Source of the DNA: Armatimonadota bacterium
GTDB taxonomy: Bacteria > Armatimonadota > UBA5829
Length of the DNA stretch: 64,000 nt
Direction: 5' to 3'
Assembly: GCA_012522575.1 (NCBI GenBank)
Contig: JAAYKE010000067.1
Span: forward strand, 383-64,382
Program-made: the position numbers and the translations under genes
Shown here: positions 7,843 through 56,678 of the stretch, piece after piece
Numbering within the stretch: position 1 is the first letter of the stretch
How the letters are laid out: each line of letters opens with the position of its first letter
Notes under the pieces: generated by a model
Told to the model about the DNA's origin: nothing
The model's input: the letters and a program-made list of their open reading frames with translations, nothing else
Databases searched by the model: none

Positions 7843-9075
7843 TCAAGCTTTCTCCAGCTCGAACGCCCTGTGCAGCGCTCTTACAGCGTTTTTGACCTGA
7901 TCTCTGGTGATAAGACAGGTGATTCGGATCTCACTCGTCGTTATGGACAAAATGTTAATCTCTGCTTTGGCAAACGCCGTAAACATTTTTTCTGCATAGC
8001 CGGGATTGCTGCGTATTCCGCTGCCGACAATAGACACCTTGGCCACGTTTTGGTCAACCACGACATCTCGCGCTTTGATTTCTTTTGTGACAGGCTCGAT
8101 CGCTTTCTTCGCTTTTTCGAGGTCAGCGTCCTGCACCGTAAACGAGACGTCAGCCAGGCCTTCAGCGCCCACGTTCTGCACGATTACGTCAACGTTGATG
8201 TTCGACGCCGCCAGCGTGCTGAATATCTTCGATGCGATTCCGGGCTGATCCGGCACTCCGCTCACGCTGATTCGCGTCACATCGGTATCATGAGCAATCC
8301 CTCTTACCGGGTTGCGGACTTCCATTTCGTGGTCCTCCTTTTTAATCAGGGTTCCGGGAACGTCCTTTGTGCTGTTGGCAACAAGGATATCGACATCGTA
8401 TAGTTCTCCGAGTTCGACCGCCCTCGAGTGCATCACGCGCGCGCCCTGACCGGCCATCTCCAGCATCTCTTCATAGCTGATCGAATCGAGCTTCCTGGCC
8501 TCGGTCTCCACTCGAGGATCGGCAGTGTAAACCCCGTCAACATCTGTAAATATCTCACATTTATCCGCTTTGAGAGCTGCAGCAAGGGCTACCGCAGTTG
8601 TGTCCGAACCGCCGCGGCCAAGCGTGGTAATATCCGCCCAGCTTGCATTTTCTGTGATCCCCTGGAATCCTGCGACAACTACCACGTTCTTTTTGTTGAG
8701 TTCCTCGCGGAGTCGCTTTACATCTATCTTAAGAATCCTGGCTCTGCCTGCAGTGCGCTCGGTGATAATCCCCGCCTGACCGCCCGTCAACGAGACCGCT
8801 CCCAGACCCAGTTTGTGTATTGCCATCGCCAGCAGCGCGCTTGATGCCTGCTCACCGGTAGCCAGCAGCTTGTCCATTTCACGTTCGTCGGGAATAAAGC
8901 AAAGCTGCCTGGCCATGCTGATAAGCTCGTCGGTAGTATCACCCATAGCCGAAACGACCACCACCACGCTGGCTTCTTTGGCCCGCTCGGCTACCCGCTT
9001 CGCTACTGCAGCGATCTTTTCGGTTGTTGCGACTGAACTGCCGCCGTATTTTTGGACAACTATCACCTGGTCCAA
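7843..9075 (-). CDS. lysC: Aspartate kinase (two C-terminal ACT domains)
   Basis: VVQKYGGSSV N-terminal kinase motif and full aspartokinase architecture. The true start is probably the GTG giving MIVVQKYGG a few codons inside the track start. Confidence 0.9.
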   Translation of the reverse strand: MDQVIVVQKYGGSSVATTEKIAAVAKRVAERAKEASVVVVVSAMGDTTDELISMARQLCFIPDEREMDKLLATGEQASSALLAMAIHKLGLGAVSLTGGQAGIITERTAGRARILKIDVKRLREELNKKNVVVVAGFQGITENASWADITTLGRGGSDTTAVALAAALKADKCEIFTDVDGVYTADPRVETEARKLDSISYEEMLEMAGQGARVMHSRAVELGELYDVDILVANSTKDVPGTLIKKEDHEMEVRNPVRGIAHDTDVTRISVSGVPDQPGIASKIFSTLAASNINVDVIVQNVGAEGLADVSFTVQDADLEKAKKAIEPVTKEIKARDVVVDQNVAKVSIVGSGIRSNPGYAEKMFTAFAKAEINILSITTSEIRITCLITRDQVKNAVRALHRAFELEKA

Positions 9076-31909: not shown

Positions 31910-32035
31910 ACTACTGATAAAGGCAAACCTCGGGAAACCGGGGGGCGCAAAGCTATCGGGACTAAGCCGGGCAGCAAGGGTGGTCCATAAAATACCCGTT
32001 CTGAATGCCGCCACGGTATGTTGGCCGAGCCGCCG
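31910..32035 (+). promoter_or_regulatory. Candidate c-di-GMP-I (GEMM) riboswitch aptamer in the 5' leader of the small ORF / URO-D-family gene
   Basis: AAGGCAAACC-UCGG-GAAA-CCGG-GGGGCGCAAAGCUAUCGGGACUAAGCCGGGC is near-colinear with the Vibrio Vc2 core GGGCAAACC-AUUC-GAAA-GAGU-GGGACGCAAAGCC. It contains a GNRA-capped P1 hairpin and a CUAAG tetraloop-receptor-like element. It lies ~160 nt upstream of the ATG at 32194. Confidence 0.5.
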
Positions 32036-32193
32036 AAGTAGGAGTTGCCCGTGACCAGAGACTGTCGGATTCAGACTATCCGGCGAAAGGCCCAGATACT
32101 ATGGGCTGGCCAAATGCGGCGGTCTTTGATCTCAGGCGATTCGCCTTAGGTGGCTCGGCTTCTTTGCATTACCGTTATTTGGAGGCGAAGAAA

Positions 32194-37909: not shown

Positions 37910-38817
37910 TCAGCTCACCTGGCTGCCGTAGGCCATCTGCCAGAGGCCATAGCCGGTGTTATACCGGGCGCGCACGCCATAGACAAACTCATCCCGCATA
38001 AACCCGCTCTCCGAATCCGCTTCGAGGGCCGCAAACTCAACCGGGGTTCGGCTCTGGAGGATGATCGGCTTGACGACACCTTTAGTCGAAAGCACAAACC
38101 AGTCGTTGACATCGGTCAGATATGGCGAGACAAGCAAATCGAGTTTGCCTTTGAGCACGTTTGAAGCGGCTCTTGATGTCGTGGAACCCTCCTCCGGCCA
38201 ATATGAACTCTCCAGAAGTTCCATAGCAACCCACTGCATATCCGGCGGCACTACCAGCAAATCCGGAGTTACTCCCATCAATTTGCCGCGGTCATCTCGA
38301 TATTTCATCATCGCGGTAATCGCGCTCTGCAACGCGGAAGCGGATAATGCTGCGGTTCCCTTGTTCGATTGAGACCCGGAATCCCCCTCGGAGTGATCTG
38401 TAGCAAAGAACGCCTAGCCGTCGTAGCACTTGCCGGTGAATCCGTTTTTGAGCAGGCCGAACGCTAGTTCGTCCATGTGCCTTTTCGCCTCGCGGGCCAG
38501 CGACACCACCCGCAGCTTGATCTGGCCATATTTATCGTCCTCTATGGCCGCCCTCTCGATGGCTATCGAGGACTCCCAGGTCTTGTTGCGTATCGAATAA
38601 TCGTGTTCGAGCAAGCCCAGCGGCATGCGCTCGTCGACGAACTCCCGAATTGCAGGAACCGCACCCAGCCAGGAATAAGTTTCCTGATCTGACCCGGAGC
38701 TTATCACTGTTGCGATGCGGGAATGTTCGCCGGCGGTGGCATCAAGGGCCTCGAAGAATACGGTTTTAAGCCCATCCTCAAGCAGTTTGGGCATATCTGA
38801 TCTTGTAAGCGGCATAT
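37910..38817 (-). pseudogene. Mu gpT-like major head (capsid) protein gene containing an in-frame TAG at 38414-38416. The N- and C-terminal halves are called as separate ORFs in the track
   Basis: Track ORFs 38414..38890- and 37910..38332- are in the same frame (84-nt gap, no other stop): ...GFTGKCYDG*AFFATDHSEGDSGS...LQSAITAMMKY.... Mu-gpT hallmarks are YSWLGAVPAIREF, CYDG-x-FFATDH, VVKPIILQS, FMRDEFVYGVRAR and GYGLWQMA. The likely real start is MPLTRSDMPKLL after an AGGAG RBS. Confidence 0.6.
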
Positions 38818-38967
38818 TTTTCTCCTGTTTGGATGTGATTGGTTGATGGTTGGCTGCGCATGCGGACGGACGATGATCTGCCCGTCGCATTCCAAAGCAG
38901 CCTCAAAGCAGAAAGCCCGGCGCTGAGAACACCGGGCCGATAGATGATATTGCACTGGCAGGCGAAC

Positions 38968-39576
38968 CTACTCCAGCGATAACTCTCCGATTTGGCTTAT
39001 GCCTTCGTTGTCGACATATTTGACCGCTATTTCGAAGGCCTGCTGTGGTGAAATGGGTTCAAATGAATGCACCATGATGTTCATTTGCACCGTGCGCGTG
39101 TGGTCGCCGATTTTCTGCAGCATGCGAATGCCTCTCAGCAGTTTTGCGCCTCGTCTGCGGTAGAATTCTATGCGCCGACGTGCGATATCTGCATCCGGCG
39201 AGTCCTCCGGCACTTCCACCTCGAAGACCACGAATTTCGCACCGCTTTCCTTTGCTCGTCTTACCACCTCGTCGTAGCACACTGCCCCAACTCCGCTGCC
39301 CCGCAGCGCCGGCAAAGTGGCGAGATACCAAAGCGCAAAGGCATTTATTTCGGGCTTGGTGCGATAAAACATAAGCCCGGCAAACTCCCCGCGCTCGTCC
39401 AATGCGGCGATCAGCCGACTTTCCACCCCGTCTTCCTTGATATCCGGGTTGAGGAACCGAAAAAAACCGGAAACCAGTATCTTCTCTTCGGGAGGAAACG
39501 CGGTCTCATACAAATCGAGCCAGGGCATAAAAAGAGCGTCGTTGATATCGGTTATTTCATAAAAAGTAATCTTCAT
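38968..39576 (-). CDS. GNAT-family N-acetyltransferase embedded in the capsid module
   Basis: 202 aa with an acetyl-CoA binding region (LATLPALRGSGVGAVCYDEVVRRAKESGAKFVVFEV). Confidence 0.65.
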   Translation of the reverse strand: MKITFYEITDINDALFMPWLDLYETAFPPEEKILVSGFFRFLNPDIKEDGVESRLIAALDERGEFAGLMFYRTKPEINAFALWYLATLPALRGSGVGAVCYDEVVRRAKESGAKFVVFEVEVPEDSPDADIARRRIEFYRRRGAKLLRGIRMLQKIGDHTRTVQMNIMVHSFEPISPQQAFEIAVKYVDNEGISQIGELSLE

Positions 39577-39611
39577 ACCGATTTTTTCGGCATCAATTGC
39601 TCTATTACCTG

Positions 39612-40028
39612 CTAGGCGGCATACCTGTCGATTCTGATCCTCACCGCAGTGGCGGATATGGACTCGACTGCGAACCCGGCGGTAATATTGGCCGTGGTTG
39701 CGGCATCGGTGACGGTCTGATTGTCCACGATATGGAACCCCACGCCCACATCGGTCTGAGCGCCGTTCGCGCCGCCGTCTACAAATACAAACGTGCCGGT
39801 GGTCTGGACGCGAATGCCGATATCCCCTGCGCTGCCGCCGGAGTTGTCTACGGTCTCATAGGCGACTCCGGCGAATGTTTCGGATGCGGTGTCGCTCGCG
39901 TTGGTCGCATAGCCGCTGGCGTTGATATTCACCAGCGCGCCTTTGGGAATTTTCACATTTGCCATAGGATAGCAGATGATCGCCCCATCCTTTCTTTTGG
40001 ACTCCCTGGCTGTGGTGGTTGCTGTCAT
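39612..40028 (-). CDS. Hypothetical Gly/Thr-rich phage structural protein (possible decoration/scaffold-associated)
   Basis: 138-aa ORF with beta-rich composition, located between the protease and capsid genes. Confidence 0.3.
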   Translation of the reverse strand: MTATTTARESKRKDGAIICYPMANVKIPKGALVNINASGYATNASDTASETFAGVAYETVDNSGGSAGDIGIRVQTTGTFVFVDGGANGAQTDVGVGFHIVDNQTVTDAATTANITAGFAVESISATAVRIRIDRYAA

Positions 40029-40044
40029 AAGATTCTCCTTTCCG

Positions 40045-40758
40045 TTATCTGCTCCTGTATTTTTCTACCAGCCCGCTGGTCACGCCGAGCTTTGCATACA
40101 ACTCCGGCTCTTCGACTTCCCCGGCTGCAGGCGCGACCTCCGAAAACTCAATCACCTTTGGCTGAGATTCCAAAAACCATCTGAAAACCTGAGAGATCGG
40201 AGTCGGTCGGTCGGCAAATGCGATTGTGTCGGAATCCTGCGAGCATAAAATAGCCCTTGCAAAGACCTCCGCTGCGGGCGCAATTTTGCCGCTTCTTTTT
40301 AGCTGATCTATGGCAATTTGCGCATCTTTTTCGGCTACTTCGCGGCGCAGAGCTTCATCGGAACTGCCAAATACCGAGCTGAGTTCTCCGTCGAGCCGAA
40401 CGCAATCCGCCTCCCCGAACACGGCAGCATCGGCTATCCTCGGCTCACGAACAAGGGATACCTCAGATATCCGGCTCTTGTCCTTGACAATGGCCACCGA
40501 AAGCCGTCTTGCGTTGGCAGATTTGACCAGTTCCCAGGCTGCTTTGGTAAAACACAGCCTCCCGAAAAGCTCCTTGCCTTTACGATAAACGTTTTTCAGC
40601 ACCCCAAGCGCGCCATCAAAAGGCGTCGAGGAGTGCTCAATGCGCAGCGGCGCATCGGATGTGTTGGCAATGATTCGATCGAGGTCCTCCTCGGTGATCT
40701 CAATGCCTCGATCCGGATAGCTGCCCGCCTCAAACAATTTAGCCTCACGTTCGATCAC
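40045..40758 (-). CDS. Mu gpI-like prohead protease / scaffold protein
   Basis: 237 aa. The N-terminus LFEAGSYPDRGIEITEEDLDRII resembles Mu-like prophage protein I, and its position after the portal gene fits. Confidence 0.4.
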   Translation of the reverse strand: MIEREAKLFEAGSYPDRGIEITEEDLDRIIANTSDAPLRIEHSSTPFDGALGVLKNVYRKGKELFGRLCFTKAAWELVKSANARRLSVAIVKDKSRISEVSLVREPRIADAAVFGEADCVRLDGELSSVFGSSDEALRREVAEKDAQIAIDQLKRSGKIAPAAEVFARAILCSQDSDTIAFADRPTPISQVFRWFLESQPKVIEFSEVAPAAGEVEEPELYAKLGVTSGLVEKYRSR

Positions 40759-40830
40759 AATTACCTCCTGAATTTGTTTGCATGTGAGAAATATATGGCA
40801 GTCCCATACGCTTTTATGTTCCGTGTAAAA

Positions 40831-42015
40831 CTAGCTCGGCAGACCCAGATATCCCCTGATCCACTCCTCGTCAGGCTTGATAATCTGCCCGCTCACCAGT
40901 TTTCCGATGACCTCCGCAAGCCCGGCGACATCCGCATCCTCCAGCGGCCCAAGGCTGAAGGTTGGATAGGATTTTGTCGAGAAATTGAAGTCAACCAGAC
41001 GCTTTATGACCTGCTCACGCATGACGGCTTCCTCAAGGTCGCGTTTGAGCTTATGCAGGCACATCTTGAGCACGTCGAGATGCACCTTTGCGAGCGCGTA
41101 GCTGCCCACTCGAATGCCCTCGTCGGTCATCAGCGTCTGGCAGAGAATTGCGCGGGATATCTGCTTGTCGTGCCATTCGATGGCCTGCAAATACCCCGAT
41201 TCCCCGCCACGTCCGGCCTCCAGCAGTTCCACCTGCACGTCATCCGGGATGACGATGGCGGTCTGCTGCTGAATCTTGTCCAGCACTCGCAGCAGTTCTT
41301 CCTGCGCCTGCTTCGGAGTTCCGCGCTTGTAGGAGCCTTTAGCGGTCGGGGAGCCGTGCTTCTCCAGATACAGATTCATAAACCGGGTGAGCACGTCTTT
41401 GCTCCAATAGTGCTTATATGCGGCGCGCAGATCCGATGTGCCGTAGGGGGATTCATACCTGGGCATGTGCGAATATATCACGAACTTATCCGATGGAAGC
41501 GTCCGCTCGACCGAGGCTGTCCCCGTCCGCTTCAACGCCCGCACGTTCATAAACTCATCGACCTCAAAGGAAAAAGTCGACGGGTCCTTTGCCTTTATGG
41601 AAGCGATTCCCACGCGACCTTTATGGGGGCCGTCCTCGAAAATGCTATAGTTGATTTCCAGTATGGAAAAGCCCTTTGCCAGCGCATCGAGCACATTGTA
41701 TAGCACGGTCAGTATCGAGCCGCGCATATCCGCCAGCGCAAAACGCACGAAGTCCGCGACCTCCACATCCTGCGGATCGCGCGTCGCCGGGTGCACCTCC
41801 CATCCGTGCGATAAAACCGCAAGTTTTTTGATAGTCAAACACGCCTGCACCTGAGCGTCGCGCTGCATTTGTTCATATATTGCATAACCTCTTCTGCCGA
41901 TCAGGTCATCGGGGTTGTATGAGTCGATATCGTTAATCAAAGACCCGGCAGCGGCCGTCTCATTCAGCCCGGGAGAACGCCGCTTGCTGAACCGGGAAAG
42001 CAGTGGAATCTTCAT
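40831..42015 (-). CDS. Phage portal protein (DUF935 / Mu gp29-like)
   Basis: 394 aa with a DUF935-like pattern, located immediately downstream of terL. GAGGTG RBS. Confidence 0.55.
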   Translation of the reverse strand: MKIPLLSRFSKRRSPGLNETAAAGSLINDIDSYNPDDLIGRRGYAIYEQMQRDAQVQACLTIKKLAVLSHGWEVHPATRDPQDVEVADFVRFALADMRGSILTVLYNVLDALAKGFSILEINYSIFEDGPHKGRVGIASIKAKDPSTFSFEVDEFMNVRALKRTGTASVERTLPSDKFVIYSHMPRYESPYGTSDLRAAYKHYWSKDVLTRFMNLYLEKHGSPTAKGSYKRGTPKQAQEELLRVLDKIQQQTAIVIPDDVQVELLEAGRGGESGYLQAIEWHDKQISRAILCQTLMTDEGIRVGSYALAKVHLDVLKMCLHKLKRDLEEAVMREQVIKRLVDFNFSTKSYPTFSLGPLEDADVAGLAEVIGKLVSGQIIKPDEEWIRGYLGLPS

Positions 42016-42066
42016 AAAACACCTCGGGTTTGGACGTTGGAAATTGGTTGTTGGAAGTTGGGCGGT

Positions 42067-43386
42067 CTACCAGCTTTGCCTTGCCATTCTGCCGGCCTGA
42101 CTCAAATATGCGGAATTGTGCGCAAACCCTTCGGTCTGTTTGCAGGCCAGCGCGAGGGCGATCACCAGGTCGTCGTTGATACCGACCCTGCCGTTCATAC
42201 GCACATTGCCGGAGGCGGTCAGCTCGTATTCATAATATTGAAGCTCCCGCAGAAGCTGCTCGTCGGGTAGAATGGTGATCGAACGGTGCGCGAACTTGAG
42301 GGACAAATGCTCTATCAGATCTCGTTTGGATCGGTTTGAGAATGTATAGCCCTCCACCGCCACATCGATGCCGAAGTCCCATAACCTGGCGCGAAGCTGT
42401 TCGAGCAGGGGATCCCCTATCGAAGTAGAATCGGCGAGCGCGCAACTCACTCGATGGGTTTTGAGGAACTGCGCAACCCTTGTGATCTGGCTGTCCCAGC
42501 CCATTTTATTGAACCTGTCGATGCCGATTATGTGGCAGCCGCGTTCATCCGATACCATCGCGACCACGGCGGTATAGTCCGAATATCTCGCCCAGTCTAT
42601 TCCCGCCACCACCACGCCGTCCGCGTCCGCTGCGTGCGAATCGGAGACCGCCGCCTCGATGTCCTCCCATGCAAAAACGCAGTTGGAATCGTCGATAAAC
42701 TGCGCCTCATATTCCACCGCAAACTGCCTCGGACTGATCTCCTGCCGCTGAGTTTCGATATATTGACGACTTATATGCGGGTTTGCCCACGATGGAAAGT
42801 TGAATGACCGGCACGCCGCGCCGTCATCAGACCCTGCGCCCCTCATAAATGCGCGATAGAAATGATTCCTGCCAAATGGAGTGCTGATCATAACCAGCCG
42901 ACCGTTGCGATCGGCAAGCATAGGGGAAATGACCTCGCTTATAACGGAGTCCCGAACAAACGCGGCCTCATCGACTATCACCCTGTCTGCGGAATGTCCG
43001 CGCAGATTGCGCCCATCCTCATCGGCGGTGCGCGCCATTATCAGGCTGCTGCCGAGAGCAAGCCTCGGATAGGGAGTGCGCGTGATTTTGGTGATGCCGC
43101 GAGTGAGCCGCGAGCCTGTCATCAGTCGTTCGATATGATCGAAGATGAGCCTGGATTGATCGTAAGTCGGGGAGACTATGATCTGCTTTGAGCCGGGATG
43201 CAAAATGGCGAGGGTGGCGGCGTCCACCGCGGCGGCCTCGGTTTTACCCCATCGACGCCCGCAGGATGCCACCTTAACTCCCGCATCGGTCAGCAGCCAT
43301 TTCTTCTGTGTTTCGTGCGGTTTCCATCCCCAGATATGATCGGCCAGCGTCAGGCGAACCGATGAATCAGTCCCCGCGGGCATTGT
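42067..43386 (-). CDS. terL: Phage terminase large subunit
   Basis: Walker A CGRRWGKTEAAA plus a C-terminal RNaseH-like nuclease region. The start was set to the internal Met (MPAGTD), and the gene overlaps terS. Confidence 0.75.
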   Translation of the reverse strand, partial: TMPAGTDSSVRLTLADHIWGWKPHETQKKWLLTDAGVKVASCGRRWGKTEAAAVDAATLAILHPGSKQIIVSPTYDQSRLIFDHIERLMTGSRLTRGITKITRTPYPRLALGSSLIMARTADEDGRNLRGHSADRVIVDEAAFVRDSVISEVISPMLADRNGRLVMISTPFGRNHFYRAFMRGAGSDDGAACRSFNFPSWANPHISRQYIETQRQEISPRQFAVEYEAQFIDDSNCVFAWEDIEAAVSDSHAADADGVVVAGIDWARYSDYTAVVAMVSDERGCHIIGIDRFNKMGWDSQITRVAQFLKTHRVSCALADSTSIGDPLLEQLRARLWDFGIDVAVEGYTFSNRSKRDLIEHLSLKFAHRSITILPDEQLLRELQYYEYELTASGNVRMNGRVGINDDLVIALALACKQTEGFAHNSAYLSQAGRMARQSW

Positions 43387-43744
43387 CGCCCTCCGTTTTG
43401 TCGTGAATGGCTTTGACCATATCGACCAGAGCCGCCCCGGGATCCTCACTTTCGGCATCGAAAACCCCGCTCACTTTAAGCACATCGACGAGAACCTTGG
43501 TGTCCGGTTTGTCCGGATTGGACGCCAACTGACACAGCCGAGCGGCCGAGTTCACCACTGCCTGCCGCGCTATCCTTTTGGCCCCGAGTTCCTGCTCACG
43601 CTCACGAACCCTCAAAGCGCGCGCAAAACGATCCGATTCCATCCAACCTCTTAAAGTAGAAAGACGCACCCCGATCATTTCAGCCACAACCGTATCGGGA
43701 TGACAAAGAAGCAACTCGATTGCATCACGATGTTTAGCCCTCAT
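43367..43744 (-). CDS. Putative terminase small subunit / HTH DNA-binding protein
   Basis: 125 aa with an HTH (VAEMIGVRLSTLRGWM), directly upstream of and overlapping terL. AGGAGG RBS. Confidence 0.45.
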   Translation of the reverse strand: MRAKHRDAIELLLCHPDTVVAEMIGVRLSTLRGWMESDRFARALRVREREQELGAKRIARQAVVNSAARLCQLASNPDKPDTKVLVDVLKVSGVFDAESEDPGAALVDMVKAIHDKTEGDNARGD

Positions 43745-46227: not shown

Positions 46228-47001
46228 TTACGGAATCGACTCTATCGGGTCGTCGGTGACCTTGCGCAGGGTTCGAGCATCTATGCGCTCCACCCCGTCT
46301 TTGAGCCTGGCCTCGCAGAAATCCGAGCGATAGAGTTGCAATATGATCTCCATCGGCATTGTAACCTTATAGGGCTTGACTTTGCCGACCAGAGCCATCG
46401 ATTTGCGGGCTGCTTCTCTGATCAGGTTGCGGGCTTCGTCGATGTCGATGCAATCAGCGCGATTTCTTCCAACGCCTTTTTTCACGGTCGCGGTTTCGAT
46501 ATTGCCGAAAAACTGCCTCGCCTCCACGCACGCCGCCTCATCTCCGCTCACCATAATCACCGGCACATCGTAGCTGCCCGTGACCAGGCCCCATCGACCA
46601 ATCTCCCCTGTATTTCGACCATTTATGGAGTAGTTGTACCACTCCCTCGAATTTTGCGTATGATCCAGAAACCCGTTGATAGTGCCCGCCATCGCGTGCG
46701 CGCCTACGAAGAACGTGCCGCTGTAGCTGCCGTCTATTTTCCGCTGTCTTTTTTTATTTGTCCTGGGATCGTGCTCCGCTCTGCTATCAAGCAGTTCCTC
46801 GATGAAGTTGCTGCCGCCGCCGTGTCCGTCACGCACCGTCACATGCGTAGCTCCGCCCTCGAAAGCCCCTTCTACAGCCGCGTTCAAATCTCCCATCAGC
46901 AGTTCGCAGCACTCGCGGAAACGATCGCCGTCCCGCTGAATCATCTCAAAAGAATCGATTCCCGTTATTCCTTCGAGGTCGGTCATAATATAGATTTTCA
47001 T
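46228..47001 (-). CDS. M55 family metallopeptidase (D-aminopeptidase DppA-like), cytoplasmic paralog
   Basis: MKIYIMTDLEGITGI N-terminus is typical of DppA/M55. Confidence 0.7.
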   Translation of the reverse strand: MKIYIMTDLEGITGIDSFEMIQRDGDRFRECCELLMGDLNAAVEGAFEGGATHVTVRDGHGGGSNFIEELLDSRAEHDPRTNKKRQRKIDGSYSGTFFVGAHAMAGTINGFLDHTQNSREWYNYSINGRNTGEIGRWGLVTGSYDVPVIMVSGDEAACVEARQFFGNIETATVKKGVGRNRADCIDIDEARNLIREAARKSMALVGKVKPYKVTMPMEIILQLYRSDFCEARLKDGVERIDARTLRKVTDDPIESIP

Positions 47002-47016
47002 TGTATCACCTGCAAT

Positions 47017-47877
47017 TTACGGAAACAGTTCCAGCGGGTCGCTTGTTATTTTCCGAACAGTGCGCGCATCTATGCGCTCGATTCCGTCTTTGAGCCTTCC
47101 TTCGCAGAAATCCGCCCGGTTAAGCTCCAATACGACCTCCATAGGCATGGTAACTTTATACGGCTTAACTTTGCCAACCAGAGCCATCGACTTTCGTGCG
47201 GCTTCACGGATTCGCTTGCGCGCTTCGTCGCTGTCGATGCAATCCGCGCGATTTCTCCCAATGCCTCTTTTGACAATGGCGGTTTCCACGTGGTTAAAAA
47301 ACTGCCTCGCCTCGACACAAGCCGCCTCGTCTCCGCTCACCATAAGCATAGGCACATCGAAGTTGCCTGCTACCAGCGCCCACATGCCAAGCTCCCCGGT
47401 CTTGCGGCCATTGATGTAGTAGTTATACCAATGCAGGGACGACTGAGTATGATCGAGAAAACCATTGATAGTGCCCGCCATCGCGTGCGCGCCGATAAAA
47501 AACGTGCCGCAGTAGCTGTCGTCGAGCTTGCCCCACCATTTTTTATTGGTTTTGAGATCGTTATCCGCCCTTTTATCGAGCAGATCGAGCACAAAATTGC
47601 CGCCGCCGCCGTGGCTGTCCAGCACTGTTACGTGCGTAGCTCCGCCCTCAAAGGCGCCTTCTATGGCCGCATTGAGATCGCCCATCAGAAGCTCGCAGCA
47701 CTCGCGATACTGCTTGCTGTCTCGTTGGATCATTTCGAAGGAATCGATGCCGGTGATCCCTTCGAGATCGGTGTGAATGTAGATTTTCATGTCCTTTGGC
47801 TGCTCTTTCTGAGTAGTTGCGCAAAAGCCGCACATGGGAATGGCAAGGATGCAGAGTAAAGCAAATAATGATTTCAT
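47017..47877 (-). CDS. M55 family metallopeptidase (DppA-like) with an N-terminal signal peptide; tandem paralog of the previous gene
   Basis: ~75% identical core to 46228..47001 plus MKSLFALLCILAIPMCGFCATT signal peptide. Confidence 0.7.
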   Translation of the reverse strand: MKSLFALLCILAIPMCGFCATTQKEQPKDMKIYIHTDLEGITGIDSFEMIQRDSKQYRECCELLMGDLNAAIEGAFEGGATHVTVLDSHGGGGNFVLDLLDKRADNDLKTNKKWWGKLDDSYCGTFFIGAHAMAGTINGFLDHTQSSLHWYNYYINGRKTGELGMWALVAGNFDVPMLMVSGDEAACVEARQFFNHVETAIVKRGIGRNRADCIDSDEARKRIREAARKSMALVGKVKPYKVTMPMEVVLELNRADFCEGRLKDGIERIDARTVRKITSDPLELFP

Positions 47878-52518: not shown

Positions 52519-53664
52519 TCAAACGACGTCTTCTTCATCCGGTTGAACATCTTCTGCTGCACGACGCAAAGCCAGAAAGGCGAGCTTCAGCGAATGACCG
52601 ACTCCGCTGTCTGTTTCTGACAGGACCAATTTCTGATACTCATCAAGAAATGTTGTGCGTAAACGGTGGAACAAGTGCAGAAAATGGCGGAGAAAACCAA
52701 GGCAGTCTATAATAGAAAATTCGATGCCGCCCGTACGCTGATATAAACCAGCGGCATATTCATGCACCTTGTCTTCGGTTTTGTCGGTTGTGATAAATAC
52801 GTAGTTGTCTATGCGATATGGCCAGCGGAGCGTCTTGTTCAAAGCTGTGTCAACGTCTTCTTGCGTCACAGACTTCTGTTTCATTTCATAAGAGGTTACT
52901 ACTTTGCCGCTGTCATCGCGAAGAGTAATGCTGACATCTCCAAGGCTTAGAGTTTGTTTATCGGCGGCATTATGAGCAGTCATAGGCAATATTTGTTGCT
53001 CAAGATTATCAACTGCGGCGTTATAACAAGCAGCTATGATTAGAACAGGCAGGCGGCTGGACCACTGGCATTTCAAATGTTGTTCAATCAGTTGGACTAT
53101 TGCTCCAGCCGACAACGGCAACGCATCGCCATCCGGCTTAAATAAGTTAAGCGCCGCATTCAATTCTTCTTCGCGCTCGTTCTTATATACAATCAAACAC
53201 CTTATGGCTTCAGAGAGCAAGTCATCTGCCGCAATGGTTCCATTTTGCACGTGGTCGAGCAGTTGAATTACAGCTTCATACAACTCCATTGGTTTGCCCA
53301 GCAATGCTGTGCCAGAAAGCAACGGGATATTAATATTACGCAGACAAGGGGTCAAAAAAGCAGTTGAAGGATTGCATGGAAGCTTCTTTTCGTGTATGAA
53401 CGGGCCGATATATGTCTCATCGTACATCCGCCCCGAATAACAATCCGGGCTGCCGATTTCGGTATAAGGTTTACGTATATCAGTGTCAGGACGATCAATT
53501 TTAGCCAGCAGACAAGCAATTAATAACCGAATACCTGCACGCGTACGACACCGACTTACATATAATACGGACGATGTGATCGATTTGTCGCTAATTATGG
53601 AAGCAGAACCGGATGCTCTGGCTCTTTCGAATGCGATCTCAAGGATTTGTCTTGGTTCTGGCAT
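52519..53664 (-). CDS. Putative type II restriction endonuclease (PD-(D/E)xK-like) partnered with the adjacent Dam-type methylase
   Basis: 381 aa with candidate LGDVS...SYEMKQK catalytic D...ExK. It overlaps the 3' end of the methylase gene, and the local GC is lower. Confidence 0.5.
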   Translation of the reverse strand: MPEPRQILEIAFERARASGSASIISDKSITSSVLYVSRCRTRAGIRLLIACLLAKIDRPDTDIRKPYTEIGSPDCYSGRMYDETYIGPFIHEKKLPCNPSTAFLTPCLRNINIPLLSGTALLGKPMELYEAVIQLLDHVQNGTIAADDLLSEAIRCLIVYKNEREEELNAALNLFKPDGDALPLSAGAIVQLIEQHLKCQWSSRLPVLIIAACYNAAVDNLEQQILPMTAHNAADKQTLSLGDVSITLRDDSGKVVTSYEMKQKSVTQEDVDTALNKTLRWPYRIDNYVFITTDKTEDKVHEYAAGLYQRTGGIEFSIIDCLGFLRHFLHLFHRLRTTFLDEYQKLVLSETDSGVGHSLKLAFLALRRAAEDVQPDEEDVV

Positions 53665-54491
53665 TTCACCGTTCCGTTGTTAAGTGATTGAAAGTCATAA
53701 TTGACCCAAAGAACTTCCTGGCGAGGCGTTTTGACGGAATGGCAAAGCTTAAGCGGACCATCAATATGAGACCAACTTGAATACAATTCATCCATTAATT
53801 CGCAATGATAGCCGGACAAAGCTACTTTCCCCTGAGCGCTATGCAAGACCTCCGCAAGCGTACGATGCTCTTCGTCGGTCATTTCATATCCGTAAGCATT
53901 GCAGTCTCCACGCGCACTGTGCGGATACGGAGGATCGCAATAAAACAGAGTGTCTTTTGTATCGTAACGACCTATCACTTCAATAGCCGGCGCGTTCTCT
54001 ATCTGCACGCGCTGTATTCGTTGCACTATATAGGGTAAATCCTCTATTGAGCCCAGCCATCTGGACACAGCCCCGGCCATACCGGCTCGGCTTGTCAGTG
54101 TACAGTGCGCCCATCTCCCGCTAGTGGCCTTTTGAGCCAATCCCGTACGCACTTGGCGAGCTTTAACGTAGAAGCGACGCGCTCTCTCTAATGAAGACAA
54201 GTCATTTTGAGGCTCGGAAATCGCGCGTTGAAACTCTTCTCGTGAAAAAGGAGTCAAAGCAATAGCCTCAATCAAGGCATCCTTTTCATCTCTTAAGACA
54301 CGAAAAAAGTTGACGACATCGCCATCCAAATCGTTGTATGTTTCCACTTCGGACGGTGGTTTATTGATGAGAAGCGCAGCGGAGCCACCGAAGGGTTCAC
54401 AGTAGTGCTTCGTTCTGGGCAACAACGGAAGAAGCCATTCAGCGTGGCTAAACTTGCCGCCATACCATCCGAAAGCAATCAACTTTCCCAC
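53595..54491 (-). CDS. DNA adenine methyltransferase (D12 class / Dam family, N6-Mtase)
   Basis: FGGSAALL AdoMet motif I and DPPY motif IV (YCDPPYPHS). Confidence 0.85.
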   Translation of the reverse strand: MGKLIAFGWYGGKFSHAEWLLPLLPRTKHYCEPFGGSAALLINKPPSEVETYNDLDGDVVNFFRVLRDEKDALIEAIALTPFSREEFQRAISEPQNDLSSLERARRFYVKARQVRTGLAQKATSGRWAHCTLTSRAGMAGAVSRWLGSIEDLPYIVQRIQRVQIENAPAIEVIGRYDTKDTLFYCDPPYPHSARGDCNAYGYEMTDEEHRTLAEVLHSAQGKVALSGYHCELMDELYSSWSHIDGPLKLCHSVKTPRQEVLWVNYDFQSLNNGTVKCQNQDKSLRSHSKEPEHPVLLP

Positions 54492-54594: not shown

Positions 54595-54780
54595 CTACTC
54601 AATCACAATCGACTCTGTCGGACAGGATTCGCAGGCCTCTTTGACTTTATCTTCCAGCCATGCCGGCACAACTTCGACCTTCACAATCGCAATACCCTCG
54701 TCGGGCATTTCAAACACTTCCGGACAAATCTCAGCACACAAACCGCATGAAATGCAGTCGTCGTTAATTGTAACTTTCAT
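54595..54780 (-). CDS. 4Fe-4S single-cluster ferredoxin
   Basis: 61 aa with CISCGLCAEICP...ESCP cysteine pattern. Confidence 0.85.
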   Translation of the reverse strand: MKVTINDDCISCGLCAEICPEVFEMPDEGIAIVKVEVVPAWLEDKVKEACESCPTESIVIE

Positions 54781-54979
54781 CGTCGTTGCTCCTTATGCAA
54801 ATATGAAAGCGCCTGCTGTAGCAAGGCTCTGAATTTATCATATCACGCTTCGGATGCAGAAGAAAGCAGGCGCTCCAAGATCGGCTTCCGCAGGTCTCAG
54901 TTCATCCTCTGTTTGACCAACCCTGCTCGAAAACGTTATGATATTGTCGGCATTATAAGCAGATGGGAGGTGAGGTCGG

Positions 54980-56035
54980 ATGGCGAGCGATGATTTCAAG
55001 TTGACATCGTTGTCGCATGGAGCCGGTTGAGCCTGCAAGTTGAGCCCACAAGCTCTTGCGCAGGTTCTGCGTCAAATGCCCTTAATAACTGATCCTAACG
55101 TACTCGTCGGCCTGTCGACATCGGACGACGCCGCCGTATATCGCATATCTGACGATGTCGCGGTGGCTCTCACTGTGGACTTTTTTACTCCGGTAGTGGA
55201 CGACGCCTATGAGTTCGGCAGGATAGCGGTCACAAACGCCCTCTCTGACATCTACGCGATGGGCGCAAGGCCCGTGCTCGCCTTGAATCTGGTCGCCTAT
55301 CCATCACGCACCCGCCCTCTCGATACCCTTGCGGAAATACTGCGAGGCGGAGCGGATCAGGCCACGGCGGCGGGTGTGAGCATAGTCGGAGGCCATTCCA
55401 TAGACGACCCTGAGCCAAAATATGGGTTGTGCGTTTTGGGAATAGCGAACCCGGCATCTATTGTCACAAATTCAGGAGCAAGTATCGGGGATCGGCTGAT
55501 TCTGACCAAACCCATAGGAACGGGCATCATAACCACAGCCATAAAACACGATACCGCACCTGCCCGGGTCGCTCAATCAGCGATTCGAGTTATGACCACG
55601 CTCAACGGCCCTGCCTCGGAAGCTGCTCTCAAGACAGGGATAAATGCCTGCACGGATGTCACCGGATTTGGCCTGTTGGGACACTTGCACGAGATGACAT
55701 CGGCCAGCGGAGTCGGCGCAATTATACGTATGCGCGATGTGCCGTTGATCGACGGAGTCAGACAACTGCTGGACCTCGACGAAGCTCCCGGCGGAACCTA
55801 CACTAACCGCGACCATCTGAACGAGGAAGATGCGGTGACGTGGAGTGAAGGCGTATCCGAGGAAGATCAACTCGCGTTGTGCGACGCTCAGACCTCGGGC
55901 GGACTGCTGATCAGCGTATCCGCAGACAAATCCGAGCCTCTGCGACGCGCGTTGATTGACGCGGGAGCGCTTTGCGCATCGGAAATCGGCGAAATAATCG
56001 ACGACAAGTCCGGCAAAATCCAAGTCACGCCCTAA
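54980..56035 (+). CDS. selD: Selenide, water dikinase (selenophosphate synthetase) with in-frame TGA selenocysteine at 55028-55030
   Basis: The track ORF starts at 55040 (TTG) but the frame is open upstream: ATG(54980) MASDDFKLTSLSHGAG-TGA-ACKLSPQAL..., matching E. coli SelD LTQYSHGAGCGCKISPKVL with Sec at the Cys17 position. A hairpin CCUGCAAG...CUUGCGCAGG starts 2 nt after the TGA (SECIS-like). GGGAGGTGAGG RBS. Confidence 0.85.
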
Positions 56036-56128
56036 CCCGCATACATATAACACCGCAGGACTATCCGACCGCAGTTCACAGCAATTTCTTGCCTGTCGAC
56101 AAGCTCCATTATGGTATAATCTAGCATC

Positions 56129-56596
56129 GTGAGCAATGAACAAAAACACAAAAATATCTCGATTACCAACCGCAAAGCGCGGCATGAGTATCATATTGGG
56201 GAAACTTTCGAGGCAGGGCTTGTGCTGGTCGGAACCGAGGTCAAATCGATCAGAGCGGGACAGGCCAGCATAACGGAGGCTTACTGCAAGATGGAGAACG
56301 GGGAGATATTCATCTACGGCATGCACGTGGCTCCATTTGAGCAGGGCAATCGGTTCAATGTCGATCCGCTGCGCCCTCGCAAACTGCTGCTGCGCAGAGG
56401 TGAAATCAACCGCATCAGCCGCCAACTCGCAGAAAAAGGCCTGACACTCATCCCTCTGAAGGTATTCTTCAGCCGCGGTTATGCCAAAATGAATATAGGA
56501 TTGGCGCGCGGCAAGAAGCTATGGGATAAGAGGGAGTCCATCACTCAGAGGGATACCGAGCGCGAACGGCTGCGGCAGGAATCCGAACGATACTAA
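56129..56596 (+). CDS. smpB: SsrA-binding protein SmpB
   Basis: 155 aa with typical SmpB N-terminal KNRKARHEY..ETFEAG and a C-terminal basic tail. Extended -10 (TGGTATAAT) ~15 nt upstream. No ssrA is visible nearby. Manual coordinates here may be off by ~10 nt relative to the track. Confidence 0.9.
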   Translation: MSNEQKHKNISITNRKARHEYHIGETFEAGLVLVGTEVKSIRAGQASITEAYCKMENGEIFIYGMHVAPFEQGNRFNVDPLRPRKLLLRRGEINRISRQLAEKGLTLIPLKVFFSRGYAKMNIGLARGKKLWDKRESITQRDTERERLRQESERY

Positions 56597-56678
56597 CGTC
56601 ATTTTCGATGTGCGGGAAATCTGCTTATAATCGCAATAAGAACAGGCCGAAGCGGGTCTGCAATGGAGAGATCAATTT

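Follow-up and report, generated by a model that had tools for sequence, protein, structure and literature searches.

The gene for selenophosphate synthetase (selD, selenide, water dikinase) in a 64,000-nucleotide stretch of an Armatimonadota contig (JAAYKE010000067.1; the window, taken at its full length) raises the question of where its coding region begins. The open reading frame (ORF) list opens the gene at TTG 55040, shortly after a TGA in the same frame. This TGA may end whatever precedes it, or it may lie inside the gene as a codon for selenocysteine (Sec). Our analysis indicated that the window selD is very probably a Sec-type selenoprotein gene, in which SelB would deliver Sec at the UGA with the aid of a hairpin downstream in the mRNA. 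The presence of Sec as residue 17 of the product is predicted from sequence comparison.

The selD reading frame and its in-frame UGA

Reading of the sequence placed the true start of selD at ATG 54980-54982, 60 bases 5' of the called start. From this ATG, 16 sense codons (MASDDFKLTSLSHGAG) lead to the TGA at 55028-55030. The codons that follow, GCC TGC AAG TTG... (ACKLSPQALAQVL...), give ACKLSPQAL in the frame of the listed ORF (TTG 55040 to 56035), and beyond the UGA this frame is uninterrupted until TAA 56033-56035. The list starts selD at TTG 55040 because the caller uses the first start codon that follows a stop. The features of the gene and its upstream region are as follows.

54913..54942, + strand: candidate sigma-70-like promoter for selD, TTGACC-18 nt-TATGAT (consensus scan, 10/12 matches)
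54966..54973, + strand: strong Shine-Dalgarno sequence GGAGGTGA, 6 nt 5' of the start codon (sequence reading; invariant in relatives L081 and L083)
54980..56035, + strand: full-length selD, 351 codons plus TAA, with predicted Sec at codon 17 (translation, TIGR00476, E. coli SelD 3u0o)
55028..55030, + strand: in-frame UGA, predicted Sec17 of the N-terminal loop H-G-A-G-U-A-C-K, with Cys19 and Lys20 conserved (alignment)
55040..55042, + strand: TTG, false start of the mechanical ORF list (331 residues, stop TAA) and codon Leu21 of the real protein

The sequence ahead of TTG 55040 was read for a motif comparable to GGAGGTGA, and none was seen. The promoter hexamers aligned with TTGAC, TATAAT and TATCAT boxes in L081 and L083, and the TTGACC-18-TATGAT pair may act as the selD promoter.

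Read through with Cys at the UGA, the frame gave a full-length SelD. The family is described by TIGR00476 and by PF00586 with PF02769; the product scored 386 bits against TIGR00476 (cut-off 125) over profile positions 1-310 of 311, and 366 bits against NF002098 (cut-off 299). It matched E. coli SelD (PDB 3u0o) with E = 6.6e-77 over residues 2-349, and the N-terminal segment was free of gaps. The UGA fell on the catalytic Cys17 of the E. coli enzyme (query shgagCacklspqal against shgagCgckispkvl), and H13-G-A-G-U17-A-C19-K20 lay opposite H-G-A-G-C17-G-C19-K20 without insertion or deletion. Residue 17, as Cys or Sec, and Lys20 are essential in E. coli SelD. By homology, the 351-residue product is predicted to have selenophosphate synthetase activity. 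Its identity to SelD of the nearest named genomes (metagenome-assembled genomes of Poribacteria, Latescibacterota and Armatimonadota) was 45-56%, and the nearest full-length SelD homologues, with 61-71% identity, were of the Cys type. The initial annotation had proposed a Sec-type selD truncated at its UGA by the ORF call, starting at 54980 and aligning residue for residue with the E. coli N-terminus; the coordinate proved correct, the alignment held from residue 2 onward with the UGA on Cys17, and this main proposal was supported by the full-length match and by conservation in relatives.

The TGA was not an accident of one assembly. A contig from another sample (L091, SRR3166067), 99.85% identical over 1996 nt, carried the same TGA at selD codon 17, so assembly error was excluded. 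The TGA was also kept in six of six relatives from different samples with 76-80% protein identity (L081, L083, L092, L094, L095 and L096). Codons 5-16 read DFKLTSLSHGAG in the window and in L081, L083 and L092. Over these codons, L081 and L083 each differed from the window by seven synonymous and no non-synonymous changes, and L092 by six and none. Change of this synonymous-only kind is expected only where a stretch is translated, and it indicates that the codons ahead of the UGA are under purifying selection. A wider set combined the window and relatives L081-L086 with the 80 species-level genomes whose SelD was most similar. In it, codon 17 was TGA in 59 selD loci and TGC or TGT in 28; neither TAA nor TAG occurred there.

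Hairpins downstream of the UGA

A UGA read as Sec in bacteria is expected to be followed by a selenocysteine insertion sequence (SECIS), and three structures in this part of the mRNA had to be weighed.

55042..55055, + strand: hairpin H1, GAGC-CCACAA-GCUC, +15 to +28 from the U of the UGA (-4.7 kcal/mol)
55056..55075, + strand: hairpin H2, the best-supported SECIS candidate (covariation, enrichment in UGA-type selD)
55029..55067, + strand: alternative outer stem, 55029-55036 with 55060-55067 plus 55037-39 with 55055-57, which excludes H2 (RNAfold)

The core of H2, GCGCAG-GUU-CUGCGU, spans 55058-55072 with 6 bp, and its extension to 8 bp (55056-55075) bulges U 55072. The triloop GUU, of the GUN type, occupies 55064-55066, at +37 to +39 from the U of the UGA. 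RNAfold gave -7.1 kcal/mol for the core, and about -7.7 kcal/mol was derived for the bulged extension. H2 was paired to 81.5% in 54 distinct UGA-type selD segments; eight pairs were tested, and six of them had changed on both sides. Its covariation, in counts made without phylogeny correction, was 0.376 against 0.180 for shuffles (reached by none of 500), and fell to 0.163 or less once the partner was slid by 1-3 columns. One pair (A1 columns 36/46, window 55060/55070) occurred in all four Watson-Crick types (GC 23, AU 8, UA 5, CG 4). Its partners are base three of the Ala27 codon and base one of codon 31, so the identity of residue 31 (Arg, Cys, Gly or Ser) goes with the base pairing; here the RNA structure appears visibly to shape the SelD protein sequence.

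H2 was also specific to genes with the UGA. A stem of at least 5 bp stood at its position in 39 of 54 selD genes of the Sec type against 2 of 28 of the Cys type, and the nearest Cys-type relatives (61-71% identity) had neither H1 nor H2. According to the published bacterial SECIS (bSECIS) consensus, the apical loop has 3-9 nt, the upper stem 4-16 bp and the UGA-to-loop distance 16-37 nt; one of the loop's first two nucleotides is G, mostly with G or U after it, and the energy is -7.5 kcal/mol or lower (PMC13188914). A hairpin that qualified under this consensus was found in 44 of 55 genes with UGA and in 2 of 31 with Cys (Fisher p = 1.3e-11), with the loop mostly at +37. In the window, H2 agrees with the consensus in its loop (GUU), its stem (6 bp, or 8 with the bulged U), its loop G and its spacing (33 nt). 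The two types of gene were separated only by such position-specific hairpin tests. The minimum free energy of the whole segment, tried as a discriminator, was rejected (-17.9 kcal/mol for UGA-type and -18.4 kcal/mol for Cys-type genes, p = 0.78).

The main competitor of H2 is the longer hairpin of the initial annotation, whose stem pairs CCUGCAAG (55032-55039) with CUUGCGCAGG (55055-55064). On this explanation Sec decoding holds, and the SECIS is a long hairpin whose lower stem starts right after the UGA and which is capped by H1, with the loop at +19 to +24. Its architecture and spacing resemble those of E. coli fdhF, and H1 at +15 to +28 fits the minimal E. coli SECIS spacing. The outer stem listed above is closely related to this stem, and with H1 it was the minimum-energy fold of the free RNA in the window (-18.7 kcal/mol, z = -2.1; 9 of 200 shuffles were as low); it was also the minimum-energy fold in L094, and a similar fold shifted by one pair was minimal in L096. 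H1-type hairpins of at least 5 bp were enriched as well, in 35 of 54 Sec-type against 3 of 28 Cys-type genes, and where Clostridium-like UGA-type genes have no H2, H1 is left as the sole candidate.

The evolutionary record of the long hairpin was poor. For the outer stem across the 54 UGA-type genes, pairing was 62.3% against 61.6% in shuffled columns, and covariation showed no excess (0.102 against 0.097, a level that 150 of 500 shuffles also attained). Near relatives can form 7-10 of its 11 pairs, and where pairs are lost (three to four of them in L081, L083 and L092) no compensating change has occurred. The covariation of H1 was weak, at 0.151 against 0.094 for shuffles, but 0.137 with the partner slid by -1. 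Its CCACAA loop has no G where the consensus places one, and lies 15 nt from the UGA, just outside the 16-37 nt range, while its loop size and stem (6 nt, with the 4-bp stem of H1) agree with the consensus. Finally, two bases of the outer stem are the G and the A of the UGA itself; with that codon in the A site the stem cannot stay closed, and it could not act during decoding. We therefore regard the long hairpin as a rather unlikely SECIS. The stem-loop of the initial annotation does exist and is the minimum-energy fold, but as a conserved SECIS element it failed, having no covariation in 54 genes and a loop without G. The SECIS assignment is the one debatable part of the finding, and it shifts by about 25 nt downstream; most likely, H2 rather than H1 or the outer stem is the element that SelB would bind.

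Covariance models added little to this choice. The initial annotation had suggested a covariance-model SECIS search, and no Rfam SECIS family was matched, either at the gathering threshold over the whole window or at E <=10 over 54960-55120, where the matches were four chance-level ones to unrelated families. We also built a custom model from 50 UGA-type selD regions outside the clade of the window. It recognized 55028-55081 as the sole strong match in the window (42.5 bits, E ~1e-12; next best 10.7). A sequence-only model gave 35.7 bits, and Cys-type selD reached up to 41.3 bits (L074) in the custom model. The score is mostly coding homology and does not discriminate, and is therefore not evidence for a SECIS.

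Several of these observations weigh against H2. Besides the uncorrected covariation counts, the empty Rfam searches and the poor discrimination of the custom model, free RNA favours the fold with the outer stem over H1 plus H2 by about 7 kcal/mol (-18.7 against -11.8 kcal/mol). The H2 of the window gene is the weakest of its clade, and its stability is borderline: the 6-bp core, at -7.1 kcal/mol in the strict count without a bulge, falls just short of the -7.5 cut-off, and the bulged extension, at about -7.7, lies just within it. L081, L083 and L092 have -11.2 to -11.5. The H2 loop is also close to the far end of the permitted distance from the UGA, and H1 stands at the E. coli-like distance.

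A mechanism can be proposed in which these structures follow one another. Translation would begin at ATG 54980, and UGA 55028-55030 would be decoded by Sec-tRNA(Sec) brought by SelB tethered to the mRNA hairpin just downstream within the coding region. With the UGA in the A site, the first 12 or so downstream nucleotides would lie within the ribosome, the outer stem would be melted, and H1 plus H2 would become the stable fold; RNAfold predicted H1 and the extended H2 when the first 12 nt were removed. SelB would then bind H2 (55058-55072), with its GUN triloop 34 nt past the UGA, and the folded H1 may serve as a compact spacer that places H2 at the mRNA entrance. The product would be a 351-residue selenophosphate synthetase with the catalytic loop HGAG-U-ACK in place of HGAG-C-GCK. 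Synthesis of this SelD would require selenophosphate, its own product, so its expression should depend on selenium.

A broader proposal is that the UGA-type selD genes of many phyla carry a two-hairpin recoding element, composed of a small hairpin (H1) at the canonical SECIS distance and, directly after it, a covarying hairpin (H2) with a GUN triloop at +37, with residue 31 dictated by the pairing. We hold this to be distinctly doubtful. If it were true, with H2 as the SelB site and H1 as a structured spacer, it would define a SelD-specific class of bacterial SECIS with an unusual geometry. The same would apply if the outer stem and H2 formed a mutually exclusive switch that tunes SelD synthesis in this lineage. 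Recovery of bSECIS elements in Sec-type selD by RNAz has already been reported (PMC4561486), and therefore the two-hairpin architecture may not be new.

Selenocysteine machinery and the meaning of UGA

The window offers no companion to the proposed Sec codon, and this has to be set against Sec decoding. ARAGORN found no tRNA-Sec, and indeed no tRNA gene of any kind, in the 64 kb, and among the 50 window ORFs scanned there was no Pfam family match for SelA or SelB. The suggestion that other TGA-interrupted ORFs might be selenoproteins was not supported either. Scanning the window produced 178 mechanical candidates, and no convincing one emerged: the 40 listed, those least covered by known genes, included none with a redox-type motif or a plausible protein sequence. 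The window itself thus does not directly demonstrate Sec decoding in this organism.

Related loci supply part of what the window lacks. In ten of them (e.g. L050, L052, L055 and L066), tRNA-Sec lies within 10 kb (~0.2-8 kb) of a UGA-type selD, which ties UGA-type genes to Sec-decoding organisms. Further loci with this linkage were L068, L071, L073, L078 and L079; where the organism was named, the linked loci belonged mostly to Clostridium-like Firmicutes. Among the related loci examined, none from the clade of the window itself had tRNA-Sec close to selD. In the present organism, selA, selB and selC would be located elsewhere in the genome, and we infer such machinery because a translated UGA at the catalytic residue has been conserved over the long term.

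It is very improbable that the TGA is a genuine stop, which would leave selD either a pseudogene or a gene whose only product, 331 residues long and begun at TTG 55040, would lack the glycine-rich loop of the N-terminus. A stop would agree with the 331-residue call made here, with the same choice of start in all close relatives, and with the Sec machinery not found in the window. The closest public protein (P0001, 99% identical) and the next dozen matches have 319-333 residues, P0001-P0013 and others range over 309-333, and the three database sequences that were read (P0001, P0003 and P0004) all begin MSPQAL. However, a stop at this codon is at odds with the synonymous-only change in codons 5-16 relative to three relatives, with TGA at 59 loci and never TAA or TAG, and with a Shine-Dalgarno sequence and promoter-like boxes that precede ATG 54980 and not the TTG. 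The segment lost would hold the catalytic Cys/Sec17 and Lys20, whose essentiality is established, and the codon is followed by a covarying, UGA-specific hairpin.

Reassignment of UGA (to Trp or Gly, codes 4 or 25) or its read-through by a near-cognate tRNA, with residue 17 other than Sec, is scarcely credible: the window does lack direct tRNA-Sec evidence, but TGA terminates 22 of the 60 longest non-overlapping ORFs, some with full-length Pfam matches such as the aspartate kinase at 7843-9075, so the code is standard and UGA is not reassigned, position 17 is Cys or Sec throughout the SelD family, and tRNA-Sec accompanies UGA-type selD in the ten related loci.

Gene neighbourhood and comparison with known systems

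The genes around selD have been rearranged relative to those of its relatives. In the relatives the order is epimerase (-), smpB (-), a 203-residue ORF (+), selD (+) and ferredoxin (+), while in the window and L091 it is ferredoxin (-), selD (+), smpB (+) and epimerase (+). Thus selD alone is inverted with respect to its neighbours (window 54595-56596 compared with L083 3700-7600 and with L081, L092 and L094), and in blastn comparisons selD aligned forward and both flanks reversed. A tblastn search of the window for the 203-residue ORF of the relatives found nothing. An imperfect inverted repeat of 26 nt (77% complementary) has one arm immediately 5' of selD (54939-54964) and the other immediately 3' of smpB (56619-56644). 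It was considered as the cause of the inversion and rejected, as it flanks selD plus smpB whereas the inverted segment is selD alone. Each arm has a TATAA(G/T)-like box, so the arms may be promoters and not recombination sites.

A 4Fe-4S ferredoxin gene (Fer4_13, ~61-71 residues) adjoins or lies close to selD, at 54595-54780 (-) in the window and at L083 7259-7447, L087 3998-4213, L088 7076-7267, L095 3260-3448 and L096 3295-3483. UGA-type and Cys-type relatives alike have it near selD, which suggests a functional link kept in evolution. Beyond the ferredoxin gene, a D12-class N6-adenine DNA methyltransferase gene (53595-54491, -) overlaps a 381-residue ORF without Pfam match (52519-53664, -), and the segment 52519-54491 (-) looks like a restriction-modification pair. 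The pair adjoins the ferredoxin gene; the same place in L083-L086 is taken by a 2-hydroxyacid dehydrogenase gene.

Elsewhere in the window, a c-di-GMP-I riboswitch aptamer (RF01051) at 31912-32037 (+) scored 64.3 bits (gathering threshold 35) and was the only Rfam match at gathering level. A remnant of a Mu-like prophage occupies 38414-43458 (-), with a Mu portal protein gene (40831-42015), a large terminase gene (42067-43458) and a fragment of the major head subunit gpT (158 residues, profile positions 4-125 of 289). Two paralogous Peptidase_M55 (D-aminopeptidase) genes are adjacent at 46228-47001 and 47017-47877 (-), and a 507-residue ORF antisense to them (46336-47859) is probably spurious.

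The practical result concerns annotation: selD should be entered as 54980..56035, codon 17 being Sec, and the public entries for it and its close relatives are truncated at the N-terminus and lack the catalytic loop. The uncultured lineage is a probable user of selenocysteine, and its other in-frame TGAs therefore merit selenoprotein-aware gene finding. Sec-type SelD is a known and widespread family (Mariotti 2015), and SelD is described as the second most widespread selenoprotein family of prokaryotes (PMC13188914). In a reference set of 223 genomes, 19% of prokaryotic SelD genes were Sec-type; SelD is often itself a selenoprotein, its Sec always occupies one position, and selenoprotein genes are usually misannotated (PMC4561486). 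The present finding is a further example of this well-known kind of selenoprotein and of a routine annotation error, and holds no new biology.

Compared with the Cys17-type SelD of E. coli, the window SelD shares the HGAG-x-xCK loop, Cys19 and Lys20. The codon for residue 17 is UGC in E. coli and UGA in the window, and E. coli selD has no SECIS. In the SECIS of E. coli fdhF the loop is at +22 to +25. Like that element and the consensus of the bSECISearch model, H2 is a simple hairpin within the coding region downstream of the UGA, with a 3-nt loop that starts with G-U; its loop is about 14 nt farther from the UGA than that of fdhF, and H1 fills the gap. The closest counterparts are the Sec-containing SelD/SPS2 proteins, such as Aquifex aeolicus SelD (PDB 2zod/2yye, as the Sec-to-Cys form) and Haemophilus influenzae SelD. 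These belong to the same enzyme family and share the Sec position, a stem-loop in the coding region directly downstream and the same truncation by gene callers, and there is no essential difference between them and the window SelD.

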